DNA of 58,347 bases from an uncultured bacterium. Its GTDB lineage: Bacteria; Hydrothermota; Tepidihabitantia; Tepidihabitantales; JBDRVQ01. The translations under genes were made by a program, and so were the position numbers. Shown here one piece after another: positions 2,715-58,347 of this stretch. The notes under the pieces are model-generated. The model saw nothing but the letters and a program-made list of their open reading frames with translations, was not told where the DNA came from and did not search any database. Within the stretch, counting starts at the first letter, position 1. Each line of letters opens with the position of its first letter. Where the stretch lies: the NCBI GenBank assembly GCA_964425275.1, contig CAYRLZ010000060.1, forward strand, positions 1 to 58,347. Reading direction: 5' to 3'.

Positions 2715-2745
2715 GGCGGGAGAGATTTCTCCCGCCTTTTCTTTT
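2715..2745 (+). terminator. Rho-independent terminator, possibly bidirectional
   Basis: GGCGGGAGA (2715-2723), loop GATT, TCTCCCGCC (2728-2736), then TTTTCTTTT. An A-rich run lies on the other side. Confidence 0.7.
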
Positions 2746-2760
2746 ACTTGTGTAAGGCTA

Positions 2761-2928
2761 AGAAGGAGATTTAGAGGAGGACACAGAAAGAGGCACAGGG
2801 AGGGGAAGAAAGAACCTAACAGGGAGCCGGTCAGGAGGAGATAGAGAAGGGGGCTGAGAAAGGAGAAGAGAGGATAAGGAGATAGGGAAAAGGATTAGGG
2901 AAGGGATAGAGAAAGAGACAGGGTAAGA
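2761..2928 (-). repeat. Degenerate distal part of array A1. The 12-nt lattice fades into a polypyrimidine (minus strand) / polypurine (plus strand) tract.
   Basis: The plus strand is almost pure A/G. In-register 12-mers GATAGGGAAAAG, GATTAGGGAAGG, GATAGAGAAAGA and GACAGGGTAAGA lie at 2881-2928. There are many AGGAG/GGA motifs. Confidence 0.7.
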
Positions 2929-3144
2929 GACCGATAATAGCACTCCCAATAGGACGTTTTATAGGACCAAGAATAGCATCACCAATAGCATCCGGAATAG
3001 GACGGAGAATAGGAAAGGGAATAGAACACTCAGTAGGAAAGAGAATAGGATTCCCAATAGGTAAGAGAATAGAATCCTGAATAGAACCCCAAATAGGAAA
3101 GAGAATAGGGATTAGAATAGGACATTTAATACCATCCCGAATAG
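2929..3144 (-). repeat. Array A1: 18 phased 12-nt units with core CTATT (AATAG on the plus strand)
   Basis: Every plus-strand 12-mer from 2929 to 3144 ends in AATAG, with variants AATAC, AGTAG and TATAG. The strand given is the head-first orientation and is inferred. Confidence 0.9.
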
Positions 3145-3207
3145 CACCCCCTATACGACCCCCTATCTTTAAGGGAAAATCCCCTAAGTTTTGGATATTC
3201 AATCACT
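3145..3207 (-). other. A1 head: G-rich 12-mers AAGATAGGGGGT and CGTATAGGGGGT plus a conserved upstream block
   Basis: The minus-strand reading is AGTGATTGAATATCCAAAACTTAGGGGATTTTCCCTTAAAGATAGGGGGTCGTATAGGGGGT. It is homologous to the heads of A2, A3 and A4. Confidence 0.6.
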
Positions 3208-3282
3208 TAATACAAAAAATCGGGCTTAAAAAATATTACTGTCAGTAATATTTTCCTGGTATTCCCTTATGAACTCTTTGGA

Positions 3283-3330: not shown

Positions 3331-4908
3331 TTATTTTATAACCACAAGTTTCTTATCTTCTTTATAGCCTTTGGTCTTAAACCGCAAGAGATAGATTCCC
3401 GCTGGTAGTCTTCTAATAGTAAATAGACCTTTATTCGTCTTTGCTGAATAGATAACTTCACCTAAGATATTGTAGATTTTTAAGGTCGCCATCTCATTCT
3501 TCGGCCAATTGTAATAAACAGTTGTGAAGCCTCTTGTTGGGTTGGAGTTAATCCGGATAGAAGTCGGGCGACTTAATTCCTGATGAGTTCCGGTATTGGG
3601 CAGTGAGGCAAGTAGAGTCGTCGTTCCGATATATTTATAGATAACATTGGTATTATTCCCCTTAATTGCGTAGATACTGCCGTCAAATGTGCAGAGCCCA
3701 CCGCCACCTTTCACATATTTCCTCTCGCTTCCCTTGGGAATCGTATCCTTAGGAACCCAGGCATCATTTGCCGGGTCATACATCCAGAACTCTTTTGTAT
3801 TATTGCCTTTGAAGGCATAGATTTTGCCATTCCAGAGGGTCATTGCAGCGCCTTCGCCGACCTTTTTACTTTTTCGGCAATAGGGATGGATAAAGGGCAT
3901 ACTCTCTTTTTTCGACCAGGAATCACCTTCTGGGCAGTATTGGTAGAATTCATTATATTTTCCCCGCAGGGCATAGATATAACTTCCATCCGAGACTAAA
4001 CAACTGCCGTCACCGTAACCTCTATCGGTTCCGACAATTTCTCGCGCATCTTTTCTTTTTTCCCAACTGTCGCCGGCGATATTAAACCGATAGAATTCCT
4101 TGGTCTTTGAGCCTTTCAAGAGATAGACAAAACCGTTCTGATAAGCGATGCCGGTTCCACCCTTCAATCCCTTTATCCCTGGGACACTGTCTAACTCCTG
4201 CCAGACAGCCGTTGCCCGGTTATAGCGCCAGAATTCCTTGGTTCCAGTTCCTGGGACAATATAAATATTGGTTAAGCCGTCGTCGGTAATACCCGAGCCT
4301 TTCCTTAGGCCGAGTTTATTTTTAATCGGAATGCTGTCAATCCAGAGTGGTGTGGTTCCTGGGAGGTAGGAATAAAAACTCTTTGTATTGTTCCCTTTTA
4401 TGATATAGATTTTGTCACCGGCGGTAATACACCCGCCACCTTTAATCTTCTTTCCATCACCAGTGGTTGGCACAGTATCGGAAAGTTTCTGCCAGTCGCT
4501 GACCGGTCGCGGGATATTTGCCACAGTCACCGAATCGGTCTTTTTATCATTATCCGGATTTTCATCTAAGTCAAGGCAGGTTGTGCATCGGGTAGTAAAG
4601 GTGCCGAGTGGTTGCGCTACCCACGGGTCAAAATAGACTGTTGTCTCCCAGTTTCGGTAGAGCGTCTTTTCTACGGTTTTTGTGCAGGAATAGGCATCAC
4701 CAATCTTAAAGATGACATCAAACCAGGCTACCGGGTCGGTCCCGACATTTTTAATTCGGGCGCGGGGGATGATTGTATCACCAAGTGGGACAGTGCCGGT
4801 CGGGGCATAGATTCTTATCGTTGCCACATCAAACTCTTCCTGTGCCTCACTACTTGTCAGTAGTCCTAAAATAATAAGTAGGGCAATTACTCCGAGTTTC
4901 TTTTTCAT
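3331..4908 (-). CDS. Secreted Kelch-repeat (beta-propeller) protein with T9SS CTD
   Basis: The ORF is 3331..4965. The preferred start is ATG 4908 (MKKKLGVIALLIILGLL signal peptide) preceded by AGGAGG. Repeated IY..KGNNTKEFW.Y blades are present. The C-terminal CTD contains LKIYNILGEVIY...AGIYLLRF. Confidence 0.8.
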   Translation of the reverse strand: MKKKLGVIALLIILGLLTSSEAQEEFDVATIRIYAPTGTVPLGDTIIPRARIKNVGTDPVAWFDVIFKIGDAYSCTKTVEKTLYRNWETTVYFDPWVAQPLGTFTTRCTTCLDLDENPDNDKKTDSVTVANIPRPVSDWQKLSDTVPTTGDGKKIKGGGCITAGDKIYIIKGNNTKSFYSYLPGTTPLWIDSIPIKNKLGLRKGSGITDDGLTNIYIVPGTGTKEFWRYNRATAVWQELDSVPGIKGLKGGTGIAYQNGFVYLLKGSKTKEFYRFNIAGDSWEKRKDAREIVGTDRGYGDGSCLVSDGSYIYALRGKYNEFYQYCPEGDSWSKKESMPFIHPYCRKSKKVGEGAAMTLWNGKIYAFKGNNTKEFWMYDPANDAWVPKDTIPKGSERKYVKGGGGLCTFDGSIYAIKGNNTNVIYKYIGTTTLLASLPNTGTHQELSRPTSIRINSNPTRGFTTVYYNWPKNEMATLKIYNILGEVIYSAKTNKGLFTIRRLPAGIYLLRFKTKGYKEDKKLVVIK

Positions 4909-5086: not shown

Positions 5087-6415
5087 ATGAAAGGAAGGCA
5101 AACAGCCACTTATGGAGGATTGGCGGTCAATAGATTAATCTCAATCTCTTGGTGGCGGGCATTCATAATCGGGCAGTTTTTGGGTATGGTGTCGGGATTT
5201 CCAATGTATAATCTCTATTATGGTAATCTCCATTCCCACACATCTTATTCTGATGGTCGGGGCACCCCCCGTCAGGCCTTTGCCTATGCCCGAGATACCG
5301 CCCGGATTCATATCTTGGCAGTAACCGACCACGGTGAGATGCTTTCCTCCGCCGAATGGGAAGATATTAAGAAACAAGCCGATTCCGCCACGAAGCCTGG
5401 TCAATTTTTAGGGCTGGCCGGGTTTGAATGGACAAGTCGGGATGGACATATCAATATCTTTAATACCTCCGATTACACCTCAGCGCATCAAAACCCAACC
5501 GTTGGTTCAATTTATGAGTGGCTGGCAAATAGGAATAATGCAATAGGCCAATTCAACCATCCGGGCGGTCCTTATCTCTTCAATAACTTCCGGCACAGTT
5601 CTATTGGCGATATTTCTATGACTCTTTTTGAAATTCAGAACCGCCACCAAGCCGAGGTTTATTATGTTGCCTTGGATAGTGGCTGGCGGGTTGGGATTTC
5701 AGCAAATCAGGATAATCACTTTCCGGACTGGGGCAAAGGGCATCAACTGACCGGTATCTGGGCCGAGAGTTTAACGAAGAGTTCAATCATTTCGGCGATT
5801 CAAAATAGACGCACCTTTGGAACTCTGGACAGGGATTTTCAACTCTGGTTCAAGGCAAATGACCAATGGATGGGTTCAACCATCCCTAATGGTGAGGTTC
5901 AATTTGAGGTCTTTGCCTTTGACCCGAGCCTTGCCGATTTCATCCGCCGAATTGATATTATAACGAACAATAATGTTGTATTGGATTCCCTTATTTTAGG
6001 TAATACAAATTATGCTCGGTGGCAGACCCGAACCTACACCAATTCGACGGCGAGGAAATATTTCTTTGTCCGGGTAATTGAGAACGATAGTGATTATATC
6101 CTCTCTTCGCCGATATGGACAAAGGGCGGTGGTATCTTAGAAGATGGCGAATATAAAATTTTCCCCAACCCATTTATTTCATCCATTACCTTTAACTTCA
6201 ATTCCATTCACCAGAGAAGTTTAGACGAGATAAAAATCTATTCAGTGAGTGGAAAGGAGATTAAATCCTTCTTACCAAAGTTACCAGTTCGTTGGGCGGG
6301 TGAGGATAAAGCCGGGAAAAAGGTTCCCGCCGGTGTATATTTTGTGGTTTTTAGGATAGGCAATAGCCAGTGGTGTGAAAAGATTATTCGGTTGAATAAA
6401 CCAATAGTAAAATAG
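5087..6415 (+). CDS. PHP-domain metallophosphoesterase-like protein with T9SS CTD
   Basis: YYGNLHSHTSYSDG and AVTDHGE motifs (PHP fold). C-terminal FPNPFISSITF...AGVYFVVF CTD. Confidence 0.75.
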   Translation: MKGRQTATYGGLAVNRLISISWWRAFIIGQFLGMVSGFPMYNLYYGNLHSHTSYSDGRGTPRQAFAYARDTARIHILAVTDHGEMLSSAEWEDIKKQADSATKPGQFLGLAGFEWTSRDGHINIFNTSDYTSAHQNPTVGSIYEWLANRNNAIGQFNHPGGPYLFNNFRHSSIGDISMTLFEIQNRHQAEVYYVALDSGWRVGISANQDNHFPDWGKGHQLTGIWAESLTKSSIISAIQNRRTFGTLDRDFQLWFKANDQWMGSTIPNGEVQFEVFAFDPSLADFIRRIDIITNNNVVLDSLILGNTNYARWQTRTYTNSTARKYFFVRVIENDSDYILSSPIWTKGGGILEDGEYKIFPNPFISSITFNFNSIHQRSLDEIKIYSVSGKEIKSFLPKLPVRWAGEDKAGKKVPAGVYFVVFRIGNSQWCEKIIRLNKPIVK

Positions 6416-25390: not shown

Positions 25391-26344
25391 ATGGGGAGAG
25401 ACCCAAAGTTGTTGAAGTTTTTGGACCTAATTTTAGATGGGGGATTTTCGGATATCCGACCGGTCTTTGACCCAAAAACCGAAAAACTGGTCCGTTATCC
25501 GGAGATTGAGCAGGCCTTAGAAAAGAATGCGGCTTTTGTCTCCCGACTCATTGAAGACCTAATTCGGCTCGGCTATTTAAAACGGTCATTCCTTTCTAAG
25601 ATGGTAATCTGTCCGGTCTGCAATTCCCCAGATTTGAGGTATCAAACATTCTGTCATAAGTGTGACTCCCCTTATATTGTAAAAATAAAGATGTTAGAAC
25701 ACCTCTTCTGTAATTATGTAGGAAAAGAGGAAGAGTTCCAGAATGGCCAGCGGCTAATCTGTCCCAAATGTCAAAAGGAACTCTTTATTATTGGTGATGA
25801 TTACAATAGCCCGGGATATAATTATCGGTGTTGTGAGTGTGGGGCAATCAGTCCAACCCCAAAAGAGAAATGGTTCTGTCCCAAGTGCGAAAATTTAATT
25901 GAGCGAGAAGAATTGAAAGATGTTATCCTGTTTTCCTATAAGGTAAACCGCCAGGAGATAGAAAGGCTCCGCAGGGAACGATTGCCGCGGGAAAGGATTA
26001 TAAATATCTTAAAGAAAGATGGCTATGAAGTTGAGGAGAATACGAGGCAAGTCGGTCGCTCCGGCGCCGAACATGAGATAGATATCCTGGCAACCAAATA
26101 TTCTGGGTCAACAACTCATCGGTTAGTGATTGGGTTTTCGATAAATGAGACCGAGATTGATTCCGAAGATGTGATAAAACTTTATGCCAAGGGTTATGAT
26201 GTAAATGCCCAGGATGTAATCTTGGTGGCAATTCCGAAACTATCCCCGGATGCCGAGAATTTTGCCCGACACTATCGGATAAAGGTATTTGAAGAGAAGG
26301 ACTTGGAAAGGTTGGAAGAGGAATTTGCTAGCGCCACCCAATAA
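25391..26344 (+). CDS. wHTH-like / multi-zinc-ribbon / PD-(D/E)xK-like nuclease-fold protein
   Basis: CxxC pairs: CPVC..CHKC, CPKC..CCEC, CPKC. C-terminal GRSGAEHEIDILA...VIGFS block resembles Mrr-type restriction-endonuclease folds. Confidence 0.6.
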   Translation: MGRDPKLLKFLDLILDGGFSDIRPVFDPKTEKLVRYPEIEQALEKNAAFVSRLIEDLIRLGYLKRSFLSKMVICPVCNSPDLRYQTFCHKCDSPYIVKIKMLEHLFCNYVGKEEEFQNGQRLICPKCQKELFIIGDDYNSPGYNYRCCECGAISPTPKEKWFCPKCENLIEREELKDVILFSYKVNRQEIERLRRERLPRERIINILKKDGYEVEENTRQVGRSGAEHEIDILATKYSGSTTHRLVIGFSINETEIDSEDVIKLYAKGYDVNAQDVILVAIPKLSPDAENFARHYRIKVFEEKDLERLEEEFASATQ

Positions 26345-29403: not shown

Positions 29404-29636
29404 CTATAATATACGATGCCTGGAGTTTCCCCAAAAATTAGAGGTAAATTTAAGTAAGTCTTTGGTATTTCGAAAGATAAGAAAATCATTCTCTTGTTTT
29501 TAGAGGGAAGCTCCTTCCCCAAAATTTATGCCAAAACCGTATTTCCGTCCCTTTTTGTATTAAAATTTAGTGAAACACTTTGAGCGGATTTTTACTCTAT
29601 ATTTAGATATGAGAAAAAGGCTAATTTTATTAAGTA

Positions 29637-29808
29637 TTGTTAAATCAATAACTTATATTTTTTGGCAATTTATATCGGGAGGTAAAAATGAAAGGATTAA
29701 ACTGACACCTAAGGCGTAAAGCGTAGAGCGTTAAACGTATAGCGTATTTTCTAATTCGCACCGCAGGGGATTTTTCTTTTTGGAAAGGGGGGAGTGCTAC
29801 AGGGGGTG
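29637..29808 (+). other. A2 leader/head
   Basis: TTGTTAAATCAATAACTTATATTTTTTGG (29637-29665). Five GCGTA-like heptads (29713-29746). GGGGATTTTTCTTTTTGGAAAGGGGGGAGTGCTACAGGGGGT (29766-29808) is homologous to the A1 head. Confidence 0.55.
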
Positions 29809-30024
29809 CTATTCGGGATGGTATTAAATGCCCTATTTTCTACCCTATTCTCTTGCCTATTCGGAATTCTATTCGGTAGCCTATTCTCTTGCCTATTGGT
29901 AATTCTATTCTTTATCCTATTGAGCGTTCTATTCCCTTTCCTATTAGGAGTTCTATTCTCGGTCCTATTGGGGATGCTATTGTGAGTTCTATTCTCTTTC
30001 CTATTCTATGTTCTATTCTTGGAG
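29809..30024 (+). repeat. Array A2: 18 phased 12-nt units with core CTATT
   Basis: CTATT (once GTATT) occurs at 29809 + 12n for n = 0..17. Collinear with A1. Confidence 0.9.
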
Positions 30025-40643: not shown

Positions 40644-40835
40644 ATTTTCAATTAGACTTGGAATTAGAAAGAGAATTAGAGAGAGAATTACTAACCCAAT
40701 TAGTTAAAGAATTAGTCTGACAATTAGACACTTAATTACCCTTTCGGTTTGGCAGAGGATTAGTTAGAGAATTAGACAGTAAATTAGGCATTCAATTAGG
40801 CTGGGGATTACGTAAAGAATTAGATAATAAATTAG
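40644..40835 (-). repeat. Array A3: 16 phased 12-nt units with core CTAATT (AATTAG on the plus strand)
   Basis: ATTAG/ATTAC occurs on the plus strand at 40651 + 12n. One unit lacks the core (CAAACCGAAAGG). Confidence 0.9.
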
Positions 40836-40911
40836 ACCCAAAAGGCAACCCAGAGGGCTACCCCCTATCTTTCTTAAAAAATCAAATAAGTTATGTTAAA
40901 TCAAAGACTTA
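40836..40911 (-). other. A3 head: conserved block plus AAGATAGGGGGT, AGCCCTCTGGGT and TGCCTTTTGGGT
   Basis: About 90% identical by hand alignment to 50376-50450. Confidence 0.6.
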
Positions 40912-41005
40912 GGAGTAAAAATCGGACCTTGAAAACTATAACTATTGTTATAGAACTTTTGTTCGGGTCGTAATTAATATGTTTCCCTTGTGGTATGTGG
41001 ATATC

Positions 41006-49080: not shown

Positions 49081-50129
49081 TGCGTTTTATTGAATTGCCA
49101 TTGATGTCTTTGGAGATGAAGCCCGGGCTGGTTCGTTTTACCACACCGCTGATTATCGAACCGAAGGGTCTAAAATCCCTGGCGGAAGATTTCTTTAATC
49201 TATTTAAGGAGAAGATTTATCCCGAGGCAAAAAAACTTGGCGCGCCCAAGAAGGAGGCAAATGCCGATACCTTCCCTATCTATTTAACCAATCGGGAAAT
49301 TGCCTACCTAAATTTTGTCTATGATATCGACCACACCCGATTATCCTTTGAGACCCCTAAAAAAGAACTCACCGAGCCTTTATTCCGGCTTTTGCGGGAA
49401 CAGCGAATAATCAAACCGGACTTAGAGTATATTCGGGAGAAGGTCTTCGGTGGACTACGGGAGGTGGTGGCCGCTTTACTCTGGCAGGTCGGGGCGATAA
49501 AGGTTAGTCTCGGTGATATCAGACCATTCTTTAAGGTTGACGAGCGGAAAAACCAGAGCCCAATTTATATTGATGTGAAGTGCTTGCCTAACTTTCCTCT
49601 GGTCTTTGATTTTTTAATCAGCCAGTCGGCCTTAATCCTCCAACACTACGATTTTGACCTCATCTGTGGGATTGAAGCCGGCAGTATCGCCTTTGCCACT
49701 GCCCTGGCTCAGAAGTTTAACCGACCAAGTTTCTTTGCCCGTCGGGAGCGACGTTACCCTGAGGCATCACTCTTGGAAGGGATAAAAGACCACGAGATTT
49801 TTAAGAAAAAGGTTTTGCTCTTTGATGATACGATTGTTAAGGGCTGGACAAAGCGGCGCGTGGTTGAAGCCCTGCGGCAAAAGGGGGCAATCTGTGAATA
49901 TACCTTTGTCATCTTTGACCGTCTGCAAGGAGGGAAGGAAGACCTTTTGGCCTTAGACTGTCAGTTACTCTCTTTAACCGACCGTGATGCCCTCCTTTCC
50001 AAAAGGATTCCGAAGGCCATCACTTTACTTACAGAAATGGAATATAAGGAAATTCTGGAATACTTCGCTGACCCAAAGAAGTGGCATAATAAAAAAGGTT
50101 TCCCTTATTTTGAGTTGAAACCAAAGTAA
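49077..50129 (+). CDS. Type I phosphoribosyltransferase (orotate-PRTase-like) with an unassigned N-terminal extension of about 125 aa
   Basis: PRPP motif VLLFDDTIVKGWT. PyrE-like SPIYIDVKCL block. The start overlaps the porX-like stop (ATGA-type overlap: ATG 49077-49079, TGA 49078-49080). Confidence 0.7.
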   Translation: MMRFIELPLMSLEMKPGLVRFTTPLIIEPKGLKSLAEDFFNLFKEKIYPEAKKLGAPKKEANADTFPIYLTNREIAYLNFVYDIDHTRLSFETPKKELTEPLFRLLREQRIIKPDLEYIREKVFGGLREVVAALLWQVGAIKVSLGDIRPFFKVDERKNQSPIYIDVKCLPNFPLVFDFLISQSALILQHYDFDLICGIEAGSIAFATALAQKFNRPSFFARRERRYPEASLLEGIKDHEIFKKKVLLFDDTIVKGWTKRRVVEALRQKGAICEYTFVIFDRLQGGKEDLLALDCQLLSLTDRDALLSKRIPKAITLLTEMEYKEILEYFADPKKWHNKKGFPYFELKPK

Positions 50130-50159: not shown

Positions 50160-50375
50160 CTAATCAATTAGGTAGAGAATTAGACTCGGAATTAGACTAT
50201 CAATTAGACCGAGAATTAGACAGAGGATTAGCCACAGGAGTACTTCTTCCATTAGTTAGAGAATTAGGATGGCGATTAGACACTTAATTAGCCTTTCGGT
50301 TAGAAAAAGAATTAGTTAGAGAATTAGCCGCTCAATTAGTATCTGGATTAGGCGGAGAATTACACCGAGAATTAA
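50160..50375 (-). repeat. Array A4: 18 phased 12-nt units with core CTAATT
   Basis: ATTAG or a variant occurs on the plus strand at 50167 + 12n. It contains the same core-less unit CTAACCGAAAGG followed by CTAATTAAGTGT as A3. Confidence 0.9.
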
Positions 50376-50450
50376 ACCCGGAAGGCGACCCAGAGGGCAA
50401 CCCCCTATCTTTTTAAAAAATCCCATAAGTTCTGTTAAATCAAAGGCTTA
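50376..50450 (-). other. A4 head: conserved block plus AAGATAGGGGGT, TGCCCTCTGGGT and CGCCTTCCGGGT
   Basis: See the A3 head. The minus-strand reading is TAAGCCTTTGATTTAACAGAACTTATGGGATTTTTTAAAAAGATAGGGGGTTGCCCTCTGGGTCGCCTTCCGGGT. Confidence 0.6.
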
Positions 50451-50471
50451 TACCAAAAAAGGGTATTTGGA

Positions 50472-50507
50472 AACCGGAAGTATATTTCTGGAAGTATACT
50501 TCTGGTT
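50472..50507 (-). terminator. Long hairpin between the lnt-C25 gene and the A4 head; possible terminator
   Basis: AACCGGAAGTATA / TATACTTCTGGTT arms (one G-T pair) with a 10-nt loop. On the minus strand a T6 run follows only after 12 nt, so this is not canonical. Confidence 0.3.
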
Positions 50508-50685: not shown

Positions 50686-53600
50686 TTATTTTATCAAAAT
50701 CACCTTTCGGGAGATAGAGAAATCCTTGGTCTGTAAAGAGAAGAAATAGATACCGGGTGGTAGGCTTCTTTTTCTCTGGTCTTTGCCATCCCATGTTGCC
50801 GTATAAATGCCCGGCTCTTTCACACCCCTGGTTATTGGCCGAACCAAACGACCGGTAATATCATAGATGTTTAATGATAGCCACTGTCGGTTGGGGATTT
50901 GGTACCGGATATTTGTCCTTTGCCGAAATGGATTGGAGTAAGTCAAACTGAATAACGGGCTTTCATAGGGGAGATAATTAGGTGCGGTCACGGTTATGAT
51001 GATTTCGTCCCTTTCTTCTCCGTTGATTGGGAATTTTATCTGCCCATCTTTATCGGTAGTGCCGTAATAGTAGAAATCCGGTGAGAGGGGTTTTGTTAGA
51101 CAGACCAATGCCTTTGGGATTGGTTGGCCGGTGATACTATCCTTTACCTCAACGACAAAAATCTGGGAACCCAAAAATTTATGAGAAACAACCATCGGTT
51201 TTGGGACCTTGGTCCAGATATTCAGTTCCGGGTCACCTAAAAGGCTCCACTCCCGATAGAAATATTCGTTAGCGTCTCCGGAATAGGGAGGAGAGGCGAT
51301 GCTATCCTTGCCTCTTAGAAATGCCTTCCCCAAAATTAAATTATCATTAACCATAACCGTCCGGAGGAAGGTTCGGACGAACCGACCGCGCCAGCGGCCA
51401 AAGCCGCCACCGAGCTGGGTTCCGAAAAAGGCCACGGCACCCTTTAAGTCTTCTCCTCCCCCTTTCACCCGCAGCCACCGCTCACCAACCGTGTTTTCAC
51501 TCTTAAAGATTGTATGGCAGGAACCAGAGATAATTATTGGCAATTTATAACCATTCTGTAACCTTTCGTCCTCCGGCTCAACCGTGAAGGGATAGGCCCA
51601 GTTGCCTGAGGCATGCCCCCGATAGAGAACGAGACTGCTTCCTTCATTTAAGGAGGCGATTATATCATCGGCATCGTCATATCCTTGATGACCAAAGAGT
51701 GTGTCGTTAAAGATTGTGTCAACCTTTGAATAGCGGAGACGGAGGATTGAATCATCATAAGGGAACTCCTCGCTATAAATTGGGTTAGCCGGTCGGCCGC
51801 CAAAGTCCCACATAAATATCAGCGTCGCCCTTTTATACCAGAGGGTATCTTCTCTTTTTGGGAAGCGCTCATAGGTTAAAATCTTTTGCACCATCGTCTG
51901 ACATTCGTCAACATTCCGACAGGGAAGTCGTCCGACCGGTATCTCCGCCCGGTAATCGCCTTCCATATCACCATAAAAATTGTCGCCCAATAAGAGTTGG
52001 TAAGAGTAATAAAGGGAGTCCCCGGGTGGGATATAATTTTTATCCCCAACCAGAAGGAGATACTCCGGACCGATAGATTTTATAATCCTCTTTATTGAAT
52101 CCGGCGAGGCACGATAAGGAACCTTTACAATCTCGGCCTTTACCCCTTTCTTGGTCTTCCACTCTTTTAATGGCTGGAGGGCATCAAAAAACTTCTCATT
52201 AGTGATTATAAGATAACGGCAATCAGTAGCGCCATTGACGATTACCGCACTAAATACAAAAATTAAAAGTCCAACCGACTTCCTCCGATGCAAGCTACCG
52301 CCGGCCATTCTCAGAATGAGAATGATTATTGAAAGATAGATAAACCAATCACCAAATCGCAAATAGAAAGTAGAGGGTAATGGTTTCGGAAGATTTCCGT
52401 AAAGAACCATTTCGGTAAAGAGGGGGGTCTTTTTAATCACCTCACCATAAGGAGAGACGATTAAAGAAATTCCATTATTCGCCGAGCGCAGAAGTGGTTT
52501 CCCCAATTCCACACTCCTCATTACCGCTAACTCGCAATGCTGATAAGGTCCGGGTGTCTTACCAAACCAACCGTCATTGGTAATATTTACCAGAAGGTCG
52601 GCTCCCCTTAAAACAAATTCCCGGGTTAAATCCGGAAAAATTGACTCAAAACAGATAAGGCAACTGGCTTTAGCCAAAGGGGTGGAAAAGACGGTGAATT
52701 CCTTTCCTGGGGTAAAATTTCCCATATCCGCGGTAGCAAAGGGCTTAAAAATTGGGAACTTGTCAATGTAAGGAATCCTTTCGGAGAAAGGGACCGGATG
52801 AATCTTCTTATAAATTCCGGTAATGCCATTTTCCGGGTCAATCAAAACCGCGCCGTTAAAGTAAGCGTTATCCTCATAGATTGGTGTTCCGATTAAGATA
52901 TAGACCCCGTAAGTCTGGCTAATTCTTAAAAACTCATCTTTTAGCCAAATCTCTTTGGTCAAATCAAATAAGGAGGCGGTCTCCGGATAGATTAAAAGGA
53001 AAGGCTTTTCTTTTATCGCCTCTTGAGTCAATTGGAGTAAAGAGCGGATATTCTCTTCTATCGTGCTTCTATCCCCCTTCTCATTCGGGCTGACATTGGG
53101 CTGAATGATTGCCACCTTAAAATTATTCTCTACCCCTTTCATTCGCAAAAGACCATAGGAAAGAGGAATGAGAAAGGTGAGGATTAAAGTTATCGCCCAT
53201 CTTTTCTTTCTGGTAAAGAGTAATTGATAGATTATAAGATTTAAAAAAACGACAAAGGCGGAAAGACCATAGACACCGGTGATGGAGGCGAATTGGATTA
53301 AGGGCAAATAAGGGGTCTGGGTATAACCCAAAAGACCCCAGGGAAAGCCAATCTCTGACTTTGTGCGGATAAACTCAAGGAGTGCCCAGAGCAAAGGGGC
53401 GATAAATAATCCGAACTTCTTCACCCCCAAACCAAAGACCAATCCGTAGAGACCAAAATAACCAAAGAGGACGAAAACTCCAAGGTAGAGAAGAAATTTC
53501 GTCTTCTCCAAAACCGGCACGACCAAAAAATAAAGCCACCAGAGATGAAAAAGGGCAAAGAGGAAAAAGAAGAGGAAGGAATAAAAGAGTGCCTTTTTGA

Positions 53601-53733
53601 GCGATGACTTTGTAATCAAATAAAAGAGCGGGACTAAGGAGAAGTAGGCGAGGAAGCGGAAGGGAAAAGGGGAAAAGGCAAGGTTTAAGGCGAAGGGCGA
53701 GAGAAAGAAAAGAACTTTCCCAAACTTACCCAT
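50686..53733 (-). CDS. lnt: In-frame fusion of apolipoprotein N-acyltransferase (Lnt), C25 gingipain-like cysteine peptidase and T9SS CTD
   Basis: Residues 1-475 hold 8 TM segments and a CN-hydrolase domain (IYPETA, CLICFES, NITNDGWF). From Met476 (nt 52308) there is a signal-peptide-like segment, then C25 blocks (YLLLVGD..IP, VGRLP, YRGHASGNW, IIISGSCHT). The C-terminal CTD contains NIYDITGRLV...PGIYFFSL. Confidence 0.8.
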   Translation of the reverse strand: MGKFGKVLFFLSPFALNLAFSPFPFRFLAYFSLVPLFYLITKSSLKKALFYSFLFFFLFALFHLWWLYFLVVPVLEKTKFLLYLGVFVLFGYFGLYGLVFGLGVKKFGLFIAPLLWALLEFIRTKSEIGFPWGLLGYTQTPYLPLIQFASITGVYGLSAFVVFLNLIIYQLLFTRKKRWAITLILTFLIPLSYGLLRMKGVENNFKVAIIQPNVSPNEKGDRSTIEENIRSLLQLTQEAIKEKPFLLIYPETASLFDLTKEIWLKDEFLRISQTYGVYILIGTPIYEDNAYFNGAVLIDPENGITGIYKKIHPVPFSERIPYIDKFPIFKPFATADMGNFTPGKEFTVFSTPLAKASCLICFESIFPDLTREFVLRGADLLVNITNDGWFGKTPGPYQHCELAVMRSVELGKPLLRSANNGISLIVSPYGEVIKKTPLFTEMVLYGNLPKPLPSTFYLRFGDWFIYLSIIILILRMAGGSLHRRKSVGLLIFVFSAVIVNGATDCRYLIITNEKFFDALQPLKEWKTKKGVKAEIVKVPYRASPDSIKRIIKSIGPEYLLLVGDKNYIPPGDSLYYSYQLLLGDNFYGDMEGDYRAEIPVGRLPCRNVDECQTMVQKILTYERFPKREDTLWYKRATLIFMWDFGGRPANPIYSEEFPYDDSILRLRYSKVDTIFNDTLFGHQGYDDADDIIASLNEGSSLVLYRGHASGNWAYPFTVEPEDERLQNGYKLPIIISGSCHTIFKSENTVGERWLRVKGGGEDLKGAVAFFGTQLGGGFGRWRGRFVRTFLRTVMVNDNLILGKAFLRGKDSIASPPYSGDANEYFYREWSLLGDPELNIWTKVPKPMVVSHKFLGSQIFVVEVKDSITGQPIPKALVCLTKPLSPDFYYYGTTDKDGQIKFPINGEERDEIIITVTAPNYLPYESPLFSLTYSNPFRQRTNIRYQIPNRQWLSLNIYDITGRLVRPITRGVKEPGIYTATWDGKDQRKRSLPPGIYFFSLQTKDFSISRKVILIK

Positions 53734-53781: not shown

Positions 53782-53943
53782 TTAAAAATTTTTGCCTTTT
53801 TCACCATAATATTCCTTTATCTTTTGGGTCAAGCCGTTTGCTAATTCTTTATAAGGAGTGGCTTGTTGAGTCTTAAAATATCTAATCAGAAGTTTTAAGG
53901 TAGAGCCATCTCGGAACACTGCTTTTATGCTCCTTCTTCCCAT
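53782..53943 (-). CDS. Possible 53-codon ORF overlapping the 3' end of the candidate endonuclease gene
   Basis: Not in the track (under 60 aa). Sequence: MGRRSIKAVFRDGSTLKLLIRYFKTQQATPYKELANGLTQKIKEYYGEKGKNF. No SD seen. Confidence 0.2.
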   Translation of the reverse strand: MGRRSIKAVFRDGSTLKLLIRYFKTQQATPYKELANGLTQKIKEYYGEKGKNF

Positions 53944-54665
53944 AACTTCTCGTTATCCAAAATTTTCCTCCAAGTTCTTAATTCTAAATCTTTCACTTCT
54001 TCAAAACTTTTTTCCGGTGTCGCGTCAAAATTAATTTCTGGTAAGCCTGGTAAATTTTCTTTCCACTTTTTAAACCAAGAGAGGATATTATTCCATATCT
54101 CAGGATGCTTTAAATATTTAAATAATTCTTCGCCATAAAAAAGATGGAGTTTAACGCCGTAGAATTTTTCGAGTCTTTTAAGTTGCTGAAGATAATAATT
54201 TTCATTTTTAGAAAGGCCGGGGTCTATAAAATACATAAAACCTACTAATTGTGAGCCGTGTCTTTTATGTAAAATTTCAATCTTCGTTTCAAAATTAGAT
54301 ATCTGCCCTTGCTTTTTAGTAGAATCATGGTCGTCTCTTACCTTTTGCTCAACGAAATAATATATGCGTCCATCCGTAAAATACTGGTCTAATGCTAATG
54401 TTTCGCCACTTTCGTTTACTATACTTTTAGATAAAATTCTAAAGCCAAGGGATTTCAGGATTTCTTCTATTATTTCTTCAAGGGCGTCTCCCATTCGTAT
54501 TTCATGAGATTGAAGAAGGTGTTGTAAAATTTTTGCTCCTGGTTTTGTTGGTCTAAATAAACCGATAAAACGTTCTGGGTTCTCCGCAATTCGCCGCAAA
54601 AGTTCTTTTTTCTCACCTTCAAATATATGTTTGTTCAAAATCGAAGAAAATGCCTTGTAATTCAT
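53925..54665 (-). CDS. Candidate type II restriction endonuclease (PD-(D/E)xK-like)
   Basis: Contains D93...E106-x-K108 (LALDQYF...YYFVEQKVRDD). It is the last gene of a methyltransferase operon. Confidence 0.45.
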   Translation of the reverse strand: MNYKAFSSILNKHIFEGEKKELLRRIAENPERFIGLFRPTKPGAKILQHLLQSHEIRMGDALEEIIEEILKSLGFRILSKSIVNESGETLALDQYFTDGRIYYFVEQKVRDDHDSTKKQGQISNFETKIEILHKRHGSQLVGFMYFIDPGLSKNENYYLQQLKRLEKFYGVKLHLFYGEELFKYLKHPEIWNNILSWFKKWKENLPGLPEINFDATPEKSFEEVKDLELRTWRKILDNEKLWEEGA

Positions 54666-54694
54666 TCGTTCCTCCTGACTTCACATAGTCTTAA

Positions 54695-55168
54695 TCACTT
54701 CTTATATTTTTCAATGTAATACTCCTCTGAGTAAGATGGCAAATCCTCCTTAGAAATAATTTCAAACTCAATCTTATTCTCATGAAGAAATTTAGTTATG
54801 CTTAGTAAAGGGAGATCTAAAAAATAAATTTTATTTACGTCGCTATACTCAAATTTTACATTCTTACCTCTCCATTCCGCTTCCCAGAAGGGCATGTCAT
54901 AAAAATCTTGGCTATTTTCTTCCACATCGTACCGATAAGGATAAATTTTGTTTTTCTCCATTAAGCGTCTTGCCGATAATTCAATTATTACATCACCGTA
55001 GAAAGAAAGATAATCGCTCAAAATATCCGAAAAGCTAATAGTATCTTCGTCATAGCCACTTATTCGCCTTCCTTTTGGAGTAAAAACTTTTTCTTCCAGT
55101 ATAGCAATAAGGTTACTTAGAGATGTTGCGTGATATAAATACTTTGGGAAATTGCCTCCTTTTTTCAT
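54695..55168 (-). CDS. Unknown 157-aa protein inserted between the methyltransferase and the candidate endonuclease
   Basis: The start overlaps the MTase stop (ATGA). N-terminal LYHATSLSNLIAILEE and central WEAEWR motifs. Confidence 0.6.
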   Translation of the reverse strand: MKKGGNFPKYLYHATSLSNLIAILEEKVFTPKGRRISGYDEDTISFSDILSDYLSFYGDVIIELSARRLMEKNKIYPYRYDVEENSQDFYDMPFWEAEWRGKNVKFEYSDVNKIYFLDLPLLSITKFLHENKIEFEIISKEDLPSYSEEYYIEKYKK

Positions 55169-56121
55169 TCAACCACCTCTAAGTTTAGATAATTGTTTAT
55201 GTATTTTTTACCTGTAAATGATAAGTCAAGTATCTTTAATGAACATTTAAACCTTTGTTCTATGCCTTTTACATACTTCGGATTGACTTCGATCATAACG
55301 AAATCCCTTTTTAATGCCTGTGCCACATATCCAGTTGTTCCTGTCCCCGCTACAGGGTCCAAAACCAAATCTCCTTCCTTGGTCGATACCAAAATCACTC
55401 TCCTAAGAAGTTCTATCGGTTTTTGTGTAGAGTGTAGCTTTTTCCCACTTTCATCTTTTAGTCTTTCATCACCCCAGCAGAGAGGTAAAACCCAAACATT
55501 TGCACCAACTTTTCCGATGCCAAACCTTTTGGCGTATTCTTTATTAAAAGTGTATCCCTTAACATGTTTATCCTTTACCGCCCAAATTAAGGTCTCGGTA
55601 GCATTTGTGAACCTCACACCTAACCAATTGGGCATTGGGTTGGTCTTTACCCAAATCACATCGTTGAGAATCCAATAGCCTAAATCTTGCATAATTTTCC
55701 CAATTCTAAAAATGCTGTGGTAAGTAGCAATAACCCAAATTGTAGCAGTTTTTTTCATTACTCTTTTTACCTCCGTGAGCAATTTTTTGATAAATTCATC
55801 GTATTCTTGAAAAGAGGAAAATTTATCCCATTCGTCATTTACCCCTTCAACAACAGTTTTTACCTTCCACCGTCTTAATTCTTTATTTGGTAACTGCAAA
55901 AAATAAGGCGGGTCAATAAAAACCATGTCAAAGACCTCGTCTTCTATTCTTGGGAGAACCTGGAAGGTGTCGCCTAAGATAACTTTATTTCTGATTTCGT
56001 CAATTTTATAAATAGCCTTCCGGTCATTATCCTTTACCAATATCCTCCTACCTTTTCTTTGGCGTCTTTCGTATTTAAACAGAATTTCCTGTTTGGTTTT
56101 AGATTTATCTTTTTCTCCCAT
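55165..56121 (-). CDS. Beta-class N6-adenine (or N4-cytosine) DNA methyltransferase, CcrM/M.HinfI-like
   Basis: FIDPPYF first, then IWVIATYHSIFRIG, NDVIWVKTNPMPN, FTNATETLIWA, HSTQKP and DPVAGTGTTG. This circularly permuted motif order is that of beta-class enzymes. Confidence 0.9.
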   Translation of the reverse strand: MGEKDKSKTKQEILFKYERRQRKGRRILVKDNDRKAIYKIDEIRNKVILGDTFQVLPRIEDEVFDMVFIDPPYFLQLPNKELRRWKVKTVVEGVNDEWDKFSSFQEYDEFIKKLLTEVKRVMKKTATIWVIATYHSIFRIGKIMQDLGYWILNDVIWVKTNPMPNWLGVRFTNATETLIWAVKDKHVKGYTFNKEYAKRFGIGKVGANVWVLPLCWGDERLKDESGKKLHSTQKPIELLRRVILVSTKEGDLVLDPVAGTGTTGYVAQALKRDFVMIEVNPKYVKGIEQRFKCSLKILDLSFTGKKYINNYLNLEVVE

Positions 56122-56758: not shown

Positions 56759-56786
56759 ATGATATTAAAAAAAACTTGGCTGTCAA
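56759..56786 (-). promoter_or_regulatory. sigma70-type promoter 5 nt upstream of the purN ATG
   Basis: Minus strand: TTGACA, 16 nt, TATCAT. Confidence 0.55.
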
Positions 56787-56789
56787 CTG

Positions 56790-56817
56790 TTGACTTTTTT
56801 TGAATTTTTGGTATAAT
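56790..56817 (+). promoter_or_regulatory. Divergent sigma70-type promoter; its -35 box lies 3 bp from the purN -35 box
   Basis: TTGACT, 16 nt, TATAAT with TGn extension. Confidence 0.6.
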
Positions 56818-57036
56818 ATTATTCCTAAGGAACGAAAAGTTGCCTTAGGAAAATATAAATAAAACTGGTGGTCGAGAAGGTGGTCCAAATCAGATTAGGT
56901 AATGAGAAGAGCAAATTGCCAAAAGAAAGGTAGCGGTGCCACCGTTACCTTATTACAAATATCGGCCTTTGCTCATCGCTGTCATCATTTGCAAAGAGGT
57001 TCTCTTTTTATGGCAGAAGAATCTGCCAAGGAGGGA

Positions 57037-58347
57037 ATGATGTCAAGGATTAAATTTCCCATTTTTATCTTAATCTTAGCCAGTATTGCGCTAGCGCAAA
57101 ACTGGGTTTACGGACCTGTTCATCCGGTTGGAAGACACCGATGGGATGCCGAATACTTTCCAACGACGAATAAGGTCTACTTCTTCCCGGGAAGAATTTC
57201 TACTACCTACTATAACGAAATCTATAGTTATGACCCAGTTACGCAGGCCTATTCCGGCGTTCTTAATAGTCTGCCAATAGCCATTGCCAACTATGATATC
57301 TGCTTGCTCCGTGATGATTATGACCTACCAGCCGGCGACACCTATGGACTTTATTGCATTGCCGGGAGTATCTCCGGTGGATATACGAATGCGGTTCAAG
57401 TTTACTACCCGGTTACTAATCAGACAAGGATAATAACAACTGACCCTTATGGACTTGCTTATGGTGCTGTTACGGCGGTGGTCTGTGACAATAAAATCTA
57501 TGCCTTCGGTGGCTTTGCTGGTGGTCCTCCGACGAACCAGGGATGGGTTTATGACCCCAGTGCACCTCCCGGCACACGCTGGACGCCTCTACCCAATCTG
57601 CCCTTAGCCCGATGCTATATGATGGGTGCGGTCGTTGATAGTTTTGTCTATGCACTGGGTGGTGATACATCTGACGGTGTGTCTTTGTATCCTCGGAGTG
57701 AATGCTGGAGGCTTAATACCCGGAATCTCGGAGAAGGCTGGCAGGCAATCACTCCTCTCCCTTATCCGACCGATCAATCAAGGGCTTTCGGTTTTAGTAG
57801 CCGAAGTCCTTATGGCTTTGAAAAATGCATCATCGTTGCCGGCCGCGGGTATTGGCCATCTGAATCAAACGAGAGTTTCATCTACAATACCCAAACTAAT
57901 GTCTGGACAACATTTCCTAATCTAATTCAGGCACGACGCAACCACGCTGGGGCATTCATACCCGGAACCCAAAATAGTAACGGTATCCCCGGAATCTGGG
58001 TTTGGGGTGGAAGGCAGGGAAGTGACCTTACCTGCTTAACTCAGTCCGAATACTATCAACTAAGATATACGGTGCGGGATGTCGGTGTGACAAAGATTAT
58101 AGAGCCAACCGGGATGAAAGAATTGAACACCCTGGTTATTCCGGCTTGCTCGGTCTATAACTTTGGCAATACCACTGAGAGTTATACAGTTCGGATGAAG
58201 ATTGGGATACACTATGACAGCACAGTCAGTGTCTCGGGTCACGCTCCCGGAGAGTATCTTTATATTACATTTCCGGAATGGATTGCTGGTCCGGTGGGAA
58301 CACGGACGGTCTCCTGTTCAACCGAACTTGACGGTGATATTGACCAA
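57037..58347 (+). CDS. Secreted Kelch-like beta-propeller protein followed by CARDB-like domain(s); the 3' end runs off the window
   Basis: Not in the track because it has no stop in the window. It is open for 437 codons from ATG 57037 after AAGGAGGG. Signal peptide MMSRIKFPIFILILASIALA. Repeated IYAFGG / VYALGG blades. DVGVTKIIEP...VYNFGN is CARDB-like. Confidence 0.75.
   Translation, partial: MMSRIKFPIFILILASIALAQNWVYGPVHPVGRHRWDAEYFPTTNKVYFFPGRISTTYYNEIYSYDPVTQAYSGVLNSLPIAIANYDICLLRDDYDLPAGDTYGLYCIAGSISGGYTNAVQVYYPVTNQTRIITTDPYGLAYGAVTAVVCDNKIYAFGGFAGGPPTNQGWVYDPSAPPGTRWTPLPNLPLARCYMMGAVVDSFVYALGGDTSDGVSLYPRSECWRLNTRNLGEGWQAITPLPYPTDQSRAFGFSSRSPYGFEKCIIVAGRGYWPSESNESFIYNTQTNVWTTFPNLIQARRNHAGAFIPGTQNSNGIPGIWVWGGRQGSDLTCLTQSEYYQLRYTVRDVGVTKIIEPTGMKELNTLVIPACSVYNFGNTTESYTVRMKIGIHYDSTVSVSGHAPGEYLYITFPEWIAGPVGTRTVSCSTELDGDIDQ

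Follow-up and report, generated by a model that had tools for sequence, protein, structure and literature searches.

The region at positions 50376-50450 (minus strand) is the junction of a conserved head with an array of 12-nt units, A4. It belongs to one of four period-12 arrays (A1 to A4) found in the window, the term used here for the whole stretch of DNA that was analysed (58 kb; 58,347 nt). The arrays have 18, 18, 16 and 18 units respectively, a count that takes in units with a (C)TATT or CTAATT core as well as one-off degenerate copies. The best homologues of the MurA encoded in the window are from candidate division WOR-3. A Pfam scan of window ORFs of at least 90 aa describes a housekeeping chromosome segment (murA, gcpE, mreBCD, the PBP2 gene, rodA, rlmN, rnhB, carAB, ffh, fmt and def) with several T9SS cargo proteins.

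A1 and A4 lie between convergent genes, A2 lies antisense between tandem genes, and A3 is upstream of murA. The genes downstream of the arrays encode a convergent subtilase, RlmN, MurA and a phosphoribosyltransferase, and the genes flanking the four arrays are mutually unrelated. Among window ORFs of at least 90 aa, Pfam finds no cas, Nop/Tas, integrase, reverse transcriptase or partition genes and no obvious RNA-binding protein, and no candidate binding protein is encoded near any copy. This is in keeping with the preliminary description of this DNA, in which the arrays were said to be intergenic and not flanked by cas, integrase or reverse transcriptase genes; a 123-aa ORF called over A1 is spurious. 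The same description allowed that the T9SS and PorX neighbourhood of A1 and A4 may be a coincidence. Coincidence is indeed most likely, given how common T9SS cargo genes are in the window and given the unrelated genes beside the other copies.

Other parts of the window carry features of their own. The 317-aa protein encoded at 25391-26344 has a TackOD1 output domain and an Mrr_cat restriction-endonuclease domain. A 1015-aa ORF at 50686-53733 combines LNT_N and CN_hydrolase (apolipoprotein N-acyltransferase) with Peptidase_C25 and a T9SS C-terminal sorting domain; it represents an unusual fusion unless the ORF call has run two genes together. The block at 53925-56121 is low in GC (35% vs ~43% elsewhere) and holds two ORFs with no Pfam match (246 and 157 aa) beside an N6_N4 DNA methyltransferase, perhaps as a small islet of restriction-modification or defence. 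At 56760-57040 a canonical extended promoter, TTGACT-N17-TATAAT with TG in front, leads into ~230 nt of untranslated leader and then a Kelch-like gene truncated by the contig end. Rfam has no match to this leader, which may be cis-regulatory.

Anatomy of the arrays and their heads

The features of the four elements are as follows.

2711-2740, both directions: strong bidirectional intrinsic terminator that ends A1 and the convergent subtilase gene
2745-2929, minus strand: A1 CT-rich lattice, 82% pyrimidine, period 12 kept, fused straight onto the array
2930-3145, minus strand: A1 body, 18 CTATT units (nCTATTnnnnnn)
3146-3169, minus strand: A1 lead units AAGATAGGGGGT CGTATAGGGGGT (two, G-rich)
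3170-3229, minus strand: A1 head block, profile E=3e-10
3230-3254, unstranded: A1 perfect palindrome with 12-nt arms AAAATATTACTG/CAGTAATATTTT and a T-run
29609-29666, plus strand: A2 head, 5' part (TTAAGTATTGTTAAATCAATAACTTAT...), profile E=0.006
29667-29795, plus strand: insertion that splits the A2 head, with GCGTAnA heptads at 29710-29746 and a second GGGGATTTTT
29796-29807, plus strand: A2 lead unit GCTACAGGGGGT (one)
29808-30023, plus strand: A2 body, 18 nCTATTnnnnnn units (CTATT type)
40644-40835, minus strand: A3 body, 16 CTAATT units
40836-40871, minus strand: A3 lead units AAGATAGGGGGT AGCCCTCTGGGT TGCCTTTTGGGT (three)
40872-40933, minus strand: A3 head block, 88% identity to the A4 head, profile E=8e-9
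50088-50110, minus strand: A4 small hairpin AAGG-GAAA-CCTT followed by T6, downstream of the body, found by eye only
50160-50375, minus strand: A4 body, 18 CTAATTnnnnnn units (CTAATT type)
50376-50411, minus strand: A4 lead units AAGATAGGGGGT TGCCCTCTGGGT CGCCTTCCGGGT (three, in lattice register)
50412-50455, minus strand: A4 head block TAAGCCTTTGATTTAACAGAACTTATGGGATTTTTTAAA, nhmmer match 50472-50416, E=3e-10
50472-50507, unstranded: A4 AT-rich inverted repeat with 17-nt arms and then a T-run, just upstream of the head

Tandem Repeats Finder re-finds the four array sites, with periods of 12, 24, 36, 48 and 60. At lag 12, 832 window positions have a self-identity of at least 0.5 over 96 nt; at lag 24 there are 554 such positions, and at each of the other lags from 5 to 30 no more than one. 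In shuffled sequence (n=50) self-identity peaks at 0.49, so that the arrays are real, far beyond chance. Written as rows of 12 nt from the lead 12-mer, all four arrays stay in register with zero sub-unit indels. Type 1 units have CTATT at lattice positions 2-6 (93-100% of 74 units), with T at position 12 in 71%. Type 2 units have CTAATT at positions 1-6, and ATT at positions 4-6 is thus common to both. The unit counts first proposed, together with the single continuous 12-nt lattice and its ATT at positions 4-6, are reproduced by this row layout and position table.

The cores (CTATT or CTAATT) are 93-100% invariant, and the remaining positions carry ~0.2 bit each, a pattern that indicates selection on a short motif and not on whole units. 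The spacers of A4 show a YYRR pattern that amounts to a higher-order period of 48 nt. The A3 and A4 bodies differ by substitutions and four whole-unit indels only.

The 12-mer AAGATAGGGGGT has three exact matches in the window, all on the minus strand (3158-3169, 40860-40871 and 50400-50411), as had been reported for A1, A3 and A4; A2 carries GCTACAGGGGGT in its place. All four arrays share the block upstream of the 12-mer, and the window has no further copy of it. Between A3 and A4, 67 of 76 head positions (88%) are identical from TAAG to GGGT, close to the ~90% over ~75 nt estimated earlier by eye. The ~100 nt said to be inserted in the A2 head prove to be roughly 100-130 nt; the head so interrupted matches the profile at E=0.006. 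Besides its ~5 GCGTAnA heptads, the insertion contains a 5-codon mini-ORF behind a GGGAGG motif. In the A4 lead, AGGGGG and CCCTCT could pair as a small hairpin near the 5' end.

The nine heads available, drawn from the window and its related loci, give a gap-free alignment of the form TAAG-N2-TTTGATTT-nACA-n-RACTTAT-n-GGATTTT. Matches to the nine-head profile are confined to array heads, in the window and in the related loci searched, and none lies upstream of a protein gene there. One head type, 60 nt long, precedes three kinds of body in nine copies, with its internal spacing fixed.

Relatives outside the window and the pattern of conservation

Family members were found on three other metagenome contigs, in two related MAGs and beneath one NCBI ORF. 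A metagenome scan for six CTATT at period 12 returned at least 120 loci. Nearly all of the loci listed are ordinary repeats with near-identical units, and among the matches listed a fixed core with diverse spacers is seen in L244, L263 and L344 only. Spacer diversity in the family is 0.9-1.0, vs 0.1-0.5 for most ordinary arrays among the at least 120 loci listed. The L244, L263 and L344 arrays are 78-91% identical to A1 and A2, and their flanks are unalignable to the window; the A2 body and the L263 array are 91% identical. In the related MAGs, L362 (MurA 70% identical to that of the window) has a head and a CT-rich body, and L363 (MurA 75% identical) has a head-like block and a CCAATT/CTAATT array cut by the contig end. 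The proposal of a single element family is thereby upheld and extended to head-plus-lattice homologues on other contigs and in related WOR-3 MAGs, so that copies do exist outside the contig first described.

L263 and L344 share a composite layout of a CTATT array, a hairpin with a T-run, a second head and a CT-rich period-12 body. The two are ~85-88% identical across the whole composite, with one 12-nt indel, after which homology stops abruptly. A1 corresponds to both composite bodies fused, minus the intervening terminator and head. The CT-rich module has its own head in L263, L344 and L362, and L263b holds remnants of array ends. Directly upstream of the L263 element, at 3655-4337, a decayed DDE (rve-type) transposase remnant is recognisable by eye from its sequence motifs, and a remnant of a T9SS sorting domain lies downstream of the element at 5461-5709.

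The family is so far restricted to a narrow WOR-3 subclade. No elements occur in ~60 kb of non-redundant WOR-3 loci with 59-64% MurA identity, and none were found in viral contigs, plasmids or phages. A scan of genome contigs for four CTATT gave chance single matches only, among the matches listed, and a degenerate YWATT scan (six units) of viral contigs gave AT-rich repeats only, mostly giant-virus by contig name. L246, with AAGATAGGG and AACTTATG upstream of a CTATTC array, was considered as a relative and rejected: its near-identical units with indels, on a contig with almost no ORFs, make a eukaryotic minisatellite probable. The 19-nt tandem repeat CGACCTTGTCGGATAAAGC, with an N-run inside, that occurs in a WOR-3 MAG at greater distance (L368, 1925-2020) is unrelated to the lattice family. 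Rfam has only a tRNA that reaches its gathering score in the window and nothing credible for the elements.

Within the subclade the elements are frequent. A rough density of ~1 per 15 kb is obtained from six elements in ~90 kb of close relatives. Three independent contigs start or end inside arrays (L244 1-240, L344 7757-7881 and L363 10960-11109), which suggests a copy number high enough to interrupt metagenome assembly. L360 and L361, two further assemblies of the same strain, are 99.98-99.99% identical to the window with no indel in the arrays. Hypervariable unit numbers between near-identical strains had been named beforehand as the mark of plain minisatellite behaviour; copy number is identical in this one strain pair.

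Element sequence is 85-91% identical between contigs with wholly unalignable flanks. Spacers are near-random within an array, yet are conserved unit by unit between homologues. Between homologous arrays, spacer identity is 62-86% at the same position vs 34-39% at different positions, and cores are 97-100% identical. The positional conservation of spacers indicates that whole arrays were duplicated and that no homogenisation is under way. Arrays differ in length only by multiples of 12 nt (A3/A4 four units, A1/L263 one unit, L263/L344 one 12-nt indel). The lack of any sub-unit indel despite 14-38% spacer divergence argues that the register itself is under selection. On the head-first strand, pyrimidines make up 58-67% of the arrays and 80-82% of the CT-rich bodies. 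This asymmetry, constant relative to the head, suggests a function that would be exerted at the level of a single strand.

Non-coding state, candidate transcription signals and interpretation

The type-1 arrays A1, L263 and L244 are open in the frame that reads ATT as Ile. In-frame stops are present in the other arrays of the window, as TAG in A2 and as a conserved TAA in A3 and A4. The arrays have no 3-nt periodicity of variability and no conserved start codon, and translated array queries have no homologues among 5.8 billion or 1.84 billion proteins, P0122 apart. P0122 is a 178-aa ORF on an NCBI contig and the sole related entry among the 1.84 billion representative proteins. It reads through an array end, a terminator, a second head and a CT-rich body and is a clear miscall. 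The full HMMER protein search also returned three unrelated low-complexity proteins. The arrays thus have no conserved ORF, as the preliminary description held. In RNA folding, the minimum free energy equals that of shuffles on both strands (z -0.24 to +0.35), and RNAalifold gives no covariation (covariation term +0.19). Unstructured, non-covarying arrays are as expected for a single-stranded binding platform. Terminal inverted repeats, MITE structure, a transposase and target duplications were not found at the elements.

The genome clearly uses canonical sigma-70 promoters, in contrast to the heads. The tRNA-Leu gene of the same window has the promoter TTGACA-N17-TATAGT, and a sigma-70 consensus promoter is absent at the A1 and A4 heads, in agreement with the earlier remark that the heads lack TTGACA-N17-TATAAT. 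By-eye fits of the head to sigma-70, extended -10, sigma-54, sigma-28, ECF or Bacteroidota -33/-7 promoters are unconvincing. Possible promoters in the head are the ECF-like RACTTA-N16/17-GATAG and TTGATT-N15-GATTTT, the latter with a start ~7 nt on, at AGATAGG. The suggestion that AACTTA could be an ECF-type -35 survives to the extent that the ECF-like pair is possible, although its fit is unconvincing by eye.

Terminator-like hairpins with T-runs lie directly upstream of most heads and often downstream of bodies. The inverted repeat at 50472-50507 is a candidate terminator or insulator for the gene upstream of A4, and the hairpin at 50088-50110, which overlaps the 3' end of the convergent gene, is a weak candidate terminator. 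A scan of the L263 region gives a sole terminator-like site, downstream of the array on the head-first strand. The downstream terminators of L344 and A4 are by-eye candidates, and A2, A3 and L244 have no clear terminator downstream. Some of the upstream hairpins could act in either direction, so that the head-first strand is only the probable transcript. The A1 palindrome is identical to its counterpart in L263 at 25 of 25 positions and marks the 5' limit of homology. This 25-nt palindrome, AAAATATTACTGnCAGTAATATTTT (window 3230-3254, L263 4447-4471), is retained though the arrays are only 78% identical; it could be the operator of a dimeric regulator rather than just a terminator hairpin.

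We regard the elements, with a confidence a little short of even, as lineage-specific non-coding RNA genes that would offer a multimeric binder a single-stranded motif at fixed intervals. A layout of hairpin with T-run, dedicated head at constant distance from the first lattice unit, strand-asymmetric unstructured body and, often, terminator is best explained by untranslated, head-first transcription units. Anatomy, conservation pattern, non-coding and unstructured state and restricted distribution are directly supported by the data. From them we infer that the elements are transcribed, from which strand, that the head serves as promoter and that a binder exists. The elements would be genes of a WOR-3 subclade, probably transcribed head-to-body, in which the conserved head would act as a promoter outside the sigma-70 type and/or as a 5' leader. 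Transcription would yield a pyrimidine-rich RNA of ~250-450 nt, free of structure, that displays 16-19 single-stranded cores of 5-6 nt (CUAUU, CUAAUU or CCAAUU, with a CU-rich, CCCUU-type core as an additional variant) at exact 12-nt spacing. Its most likely mode of action would be to bind a protein, protein oligomer or filament multivalently, each subunit covering ~12 nt. The RNA might then be a sponge or an assembly scaffold, a function that, like the partner itself, is conjectural. The several core flavours are awkward for a single binder and may serve paralogous binders, and ~1 element per 15 kb is denser than expected of a regulatory sponge. The non-coding RNA genes proposed in the preliminary description accordingly keep their support from the hairpin, head, pyrimidine-rich body and terminator and from the lack of a coding signal; the weak point is the head, which fits no known promoter type.

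Other readings of the same features have to be weighed. The arrays could be a double-stranded DNA platform coated by one subunit per 12 bp, in the manner of TubR/tubC or ParR/parC, with a role in chromosome organisation or local regulation. Iterons with 11-12-bp units form known centromere-like arrays, and the strict 12-bp register and the invariant core over 16-19 units would suit such coating. We nevertheless consider it improbable. Against it stand the consistent purine/pyrimidine asymmetry, which is oriented relative to the head and includes an 80-82% pyrimidine variant, the directional terminators, the chromosomal and dispersed position of the copies, with neither partition nor DNA-binding genes close by, and a period of 12 bp, which runs out of phase with the helix. 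The same low probability is given to a selfish or neutral dispersed repeat, that is, a higher-order minisatellite spread by duplication and recombination with no cellular function. The rough density of ~1 per 15 kb, the contigs that break at arrays (L244, L344 and L363), the shuffled modules (the fusion of array and CT-rich body in A1, the array-end remnants in L263b), the 48-nt higher-order periodicity and the sharp end of homology at element edges all point that way. Neutral decay, on the other hand, should hit core and spacer equally, and the cores are 93-100% conserved while the spacers are 14-38% diverged. Zero sub-unit indels, the fixed internal spacing of the head, the missing terminal inverted repeats, transposase and target duplications, and identical copy number in independent assemblies of the same strain also speak against it. 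The spacer diversity of 0.9-1.0 and the identical copy number in L360 and L361, one strain pair, do not fit an ordinary minisatellite.

If the purine-rich strand were the transcript, it would consist of AAUAG(G)/AAUUAG units and GA tracts and could be a GGA or ARN sponge of CsrA or Hfq type. The opposite strand of A1 does have 12 GGA in the array, with further copies in its GA-rich part; reverse transcripts could end at the hairpins with T-runs that lie within or upstream of some heads, and a weak TTGCTA-N16/17-AATAAT points back into the L263 and L344 arrays. The chances of this reading are small all the same: type-2 arrays are not enriched in GGA (3-6 per ~200 nt), reverse promoter-like sites are at chance level in scans, the sole terminator-like site near L263a is on the head-first strand, and the Rfam Csr/Rsm models are unmatched, with one 22-bit partial match at the terminator vs a gathering score of 61. 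Slightly smaller still are those of a role in termination or turnover, as an idealised Rho-loading (rut) site with YC every ~12 nt or as a decoy for a UA-specific endoribonuclease. Rho covers ~12-13 nt per subunit, type 1 has YC at lattice positions 1-2 (Y 79%, C 93%), and the RNA would be unstructured and richer in C than in G; this account leaves the invariant UAUU or UAAUU unexplained, many type-1 spacers are G-rich, and YC occurs in only ~60% of type-2 units. The CT-rich bodies are also unlikely as an anti-Shine-Dalgarno decoy, since only 7 of 50 window genes have an SD-like motif. CRISPR-like or TIGR-like guide-RNA arrays are a very improbable reading and largely refuted. The interspaced look of repeats and spacers and the terminator at the end recall them, and TIGR arrays are also very short (PMC12045711). 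The elements have a single 5-6-nt core and not two alternating 8-12-nt repeats, spacers of 6-7 nt and not 9, no box C/D motifs, spacers conserved between genomes, and no Nop/Tas or cas gene in 58 kb (Pfam, ORFs of at least 90 aa). Least probable of all is a protein-coding repeat of four residues (xIxx), which is refuted for practical purposes: against the open ATT-as-Ile frame of the type-1 arrays A1, L263 and L244 stand the in-frame TAG of A2 and conserved TAA of A3 and A4, the lack of 3-nt periodicity and of a conserved start, and the lack of homologues but P0122, an ORF that runs through a terminator and a head.

The SD-like motif in question (GGAG, GAGG or AGGA, 4-18 nt upstream of the start) was counted at 7 of 50 window genes, and this WOR-3 organism, like Bacteroidota, seems to make little use of Shine-Dalgarno sequences.

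The non-coding RNA reading can be carried further. The elements might be "lattice RNAs", a new class of bacterial non-coding RNA with cores at 12-nt pitch that nucleate or titrate a helical or ring-shaped ribonucleoprotein, a role that would owe nothing to RNA structure. The several core flavours would suit paralogous binders, the promoter module would be dedicated and not of sigma-70 type, and each genome of a WOR-3 subclade would hold tens of copies, perhaps more than 100. In this full form the idea is speculative and we judge it unlikely. If the elements are transcribed, they would be an abundant non-coding RNA family in an uncultured phylum with essentially no known RNA biology, set apart from all curated bacterial RNA families by exact motif spacing, kept register and lack of secondary structure. 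From the strict 12-nt register one would expect a partner of defined footprint, and from the shared head a transcription factor or sigma factor dedicated to it. If they act as DNA, a dispersed family of phased 12-bp arrays in a chromosome is still unusual. The elements break metagenome assemblies and attract spurious ORF calls, and their annotation would improve WOR-3 MAGs.

Comparison with known systems

TIGR arrays have two alternating repeats of 8-12 nt, 9-nt spacers and units of ~36 nt, an adjacent Nop-domain Tas gene, and box D (UG) and box C (CCA) at the repeat edges (PMC12045711). The very short repeat-and-spacer period and the terminator at the end are shared with the elements described here, and a TIGR array is one RNA (PMC12045711). 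Membership is rejected in view of the single 5-6-nt core, the 6-7-nt spacer and the 12-nt unit, with no Nop domain and no box motifs. CRISPR arrays, with repeats of 25-36 nt, spacers of similar size and cas genes, fit neither the lattice nor the genes of the window.

The antitoxin RNAs of type III toxin-antitoxin systems (ToxI, CptI and TenpI) are tandem-repeat non-coding RNAs with a promoter and a terminator, an organisation known for ToxI and proposed here for the elements. ToxI-type RNAs have two to six near-identical repeats of 36-45 nt, form pseudoknots and lie directly upstream of a toxin gene. The 16-19 diverged 12-nt units found here, with no toxin gene, exclude membership. The parC locus of R1 has 11-bp units and tubC of pBtoxis has 12-bp units; these centromeres consist of 7-10 units beside a partition operon, on plasmids or phages, and have no strand bias. 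The likeness is in tandem direct repeats with a period of 11-12 bp (here exactly 12) that could seat one dimer per unit. The elements differ in being chromosomal, dispersed and strand-asymmetric, with a head and a terminator, and ParM/ParR and TubZ/TubR are absent from window ORFs of at least 90 aa, as are plasmid or phage matches to the elements.

STRR, REP/BIME and Correia elements are likewise lineage-specific, dispersed, intergenic, multi-copy and assembly-breaking. The units of cyanobacterial STRR are near-identical heptamers, and REP and MITE sequences are palindromic or have terminal inverted repeats. By contrast, the present elements combine a fixed core, individually conserved spacers and a dedicated head, and membership among MITE or REP sequences is rejected because no inverted repeats flank them.

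The Csr/Rsm RNAs carry GGA mostly in hairpin loops at irregular spacing, whereas the elements would display CUAUU or CUAAUU, single-stranded, on a 12-nt lattice with no hairpins. On the head-first strand there are 0-5 GGA per array, and folding is no better than that of shuffles. The Rfam CsrB, CsrC and Rsm models give only a 22-bit partial CsrC match at the 2711-2740 terminator vs a gathering score of 61, and no csrA is seen within the 58-kb window. Membership is rejected, every tested defining feature being absent. In its general design, an orphan non-coding RNA gene with its own promoter and terminator, reiterated short motifs (8-22 in Csr/Rsm) and several paralogues per genome, the proposed RNA would resemble CsrB, CsrC and RsmX, RsmY and RsmZ, and the Csr/Rsm protein sponges are its closest functional analogy. 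Rfam, the literature, in which we found no description of such elements and no mention of the sample accessions, and these comparisons between classes all agree with the initial impression that the elements match no described RNA family or repeat class. As far as sequence can tell, the anatomy of the family is categorically new, in that no tested Rfam family, repeat class or guide-array type shares it.
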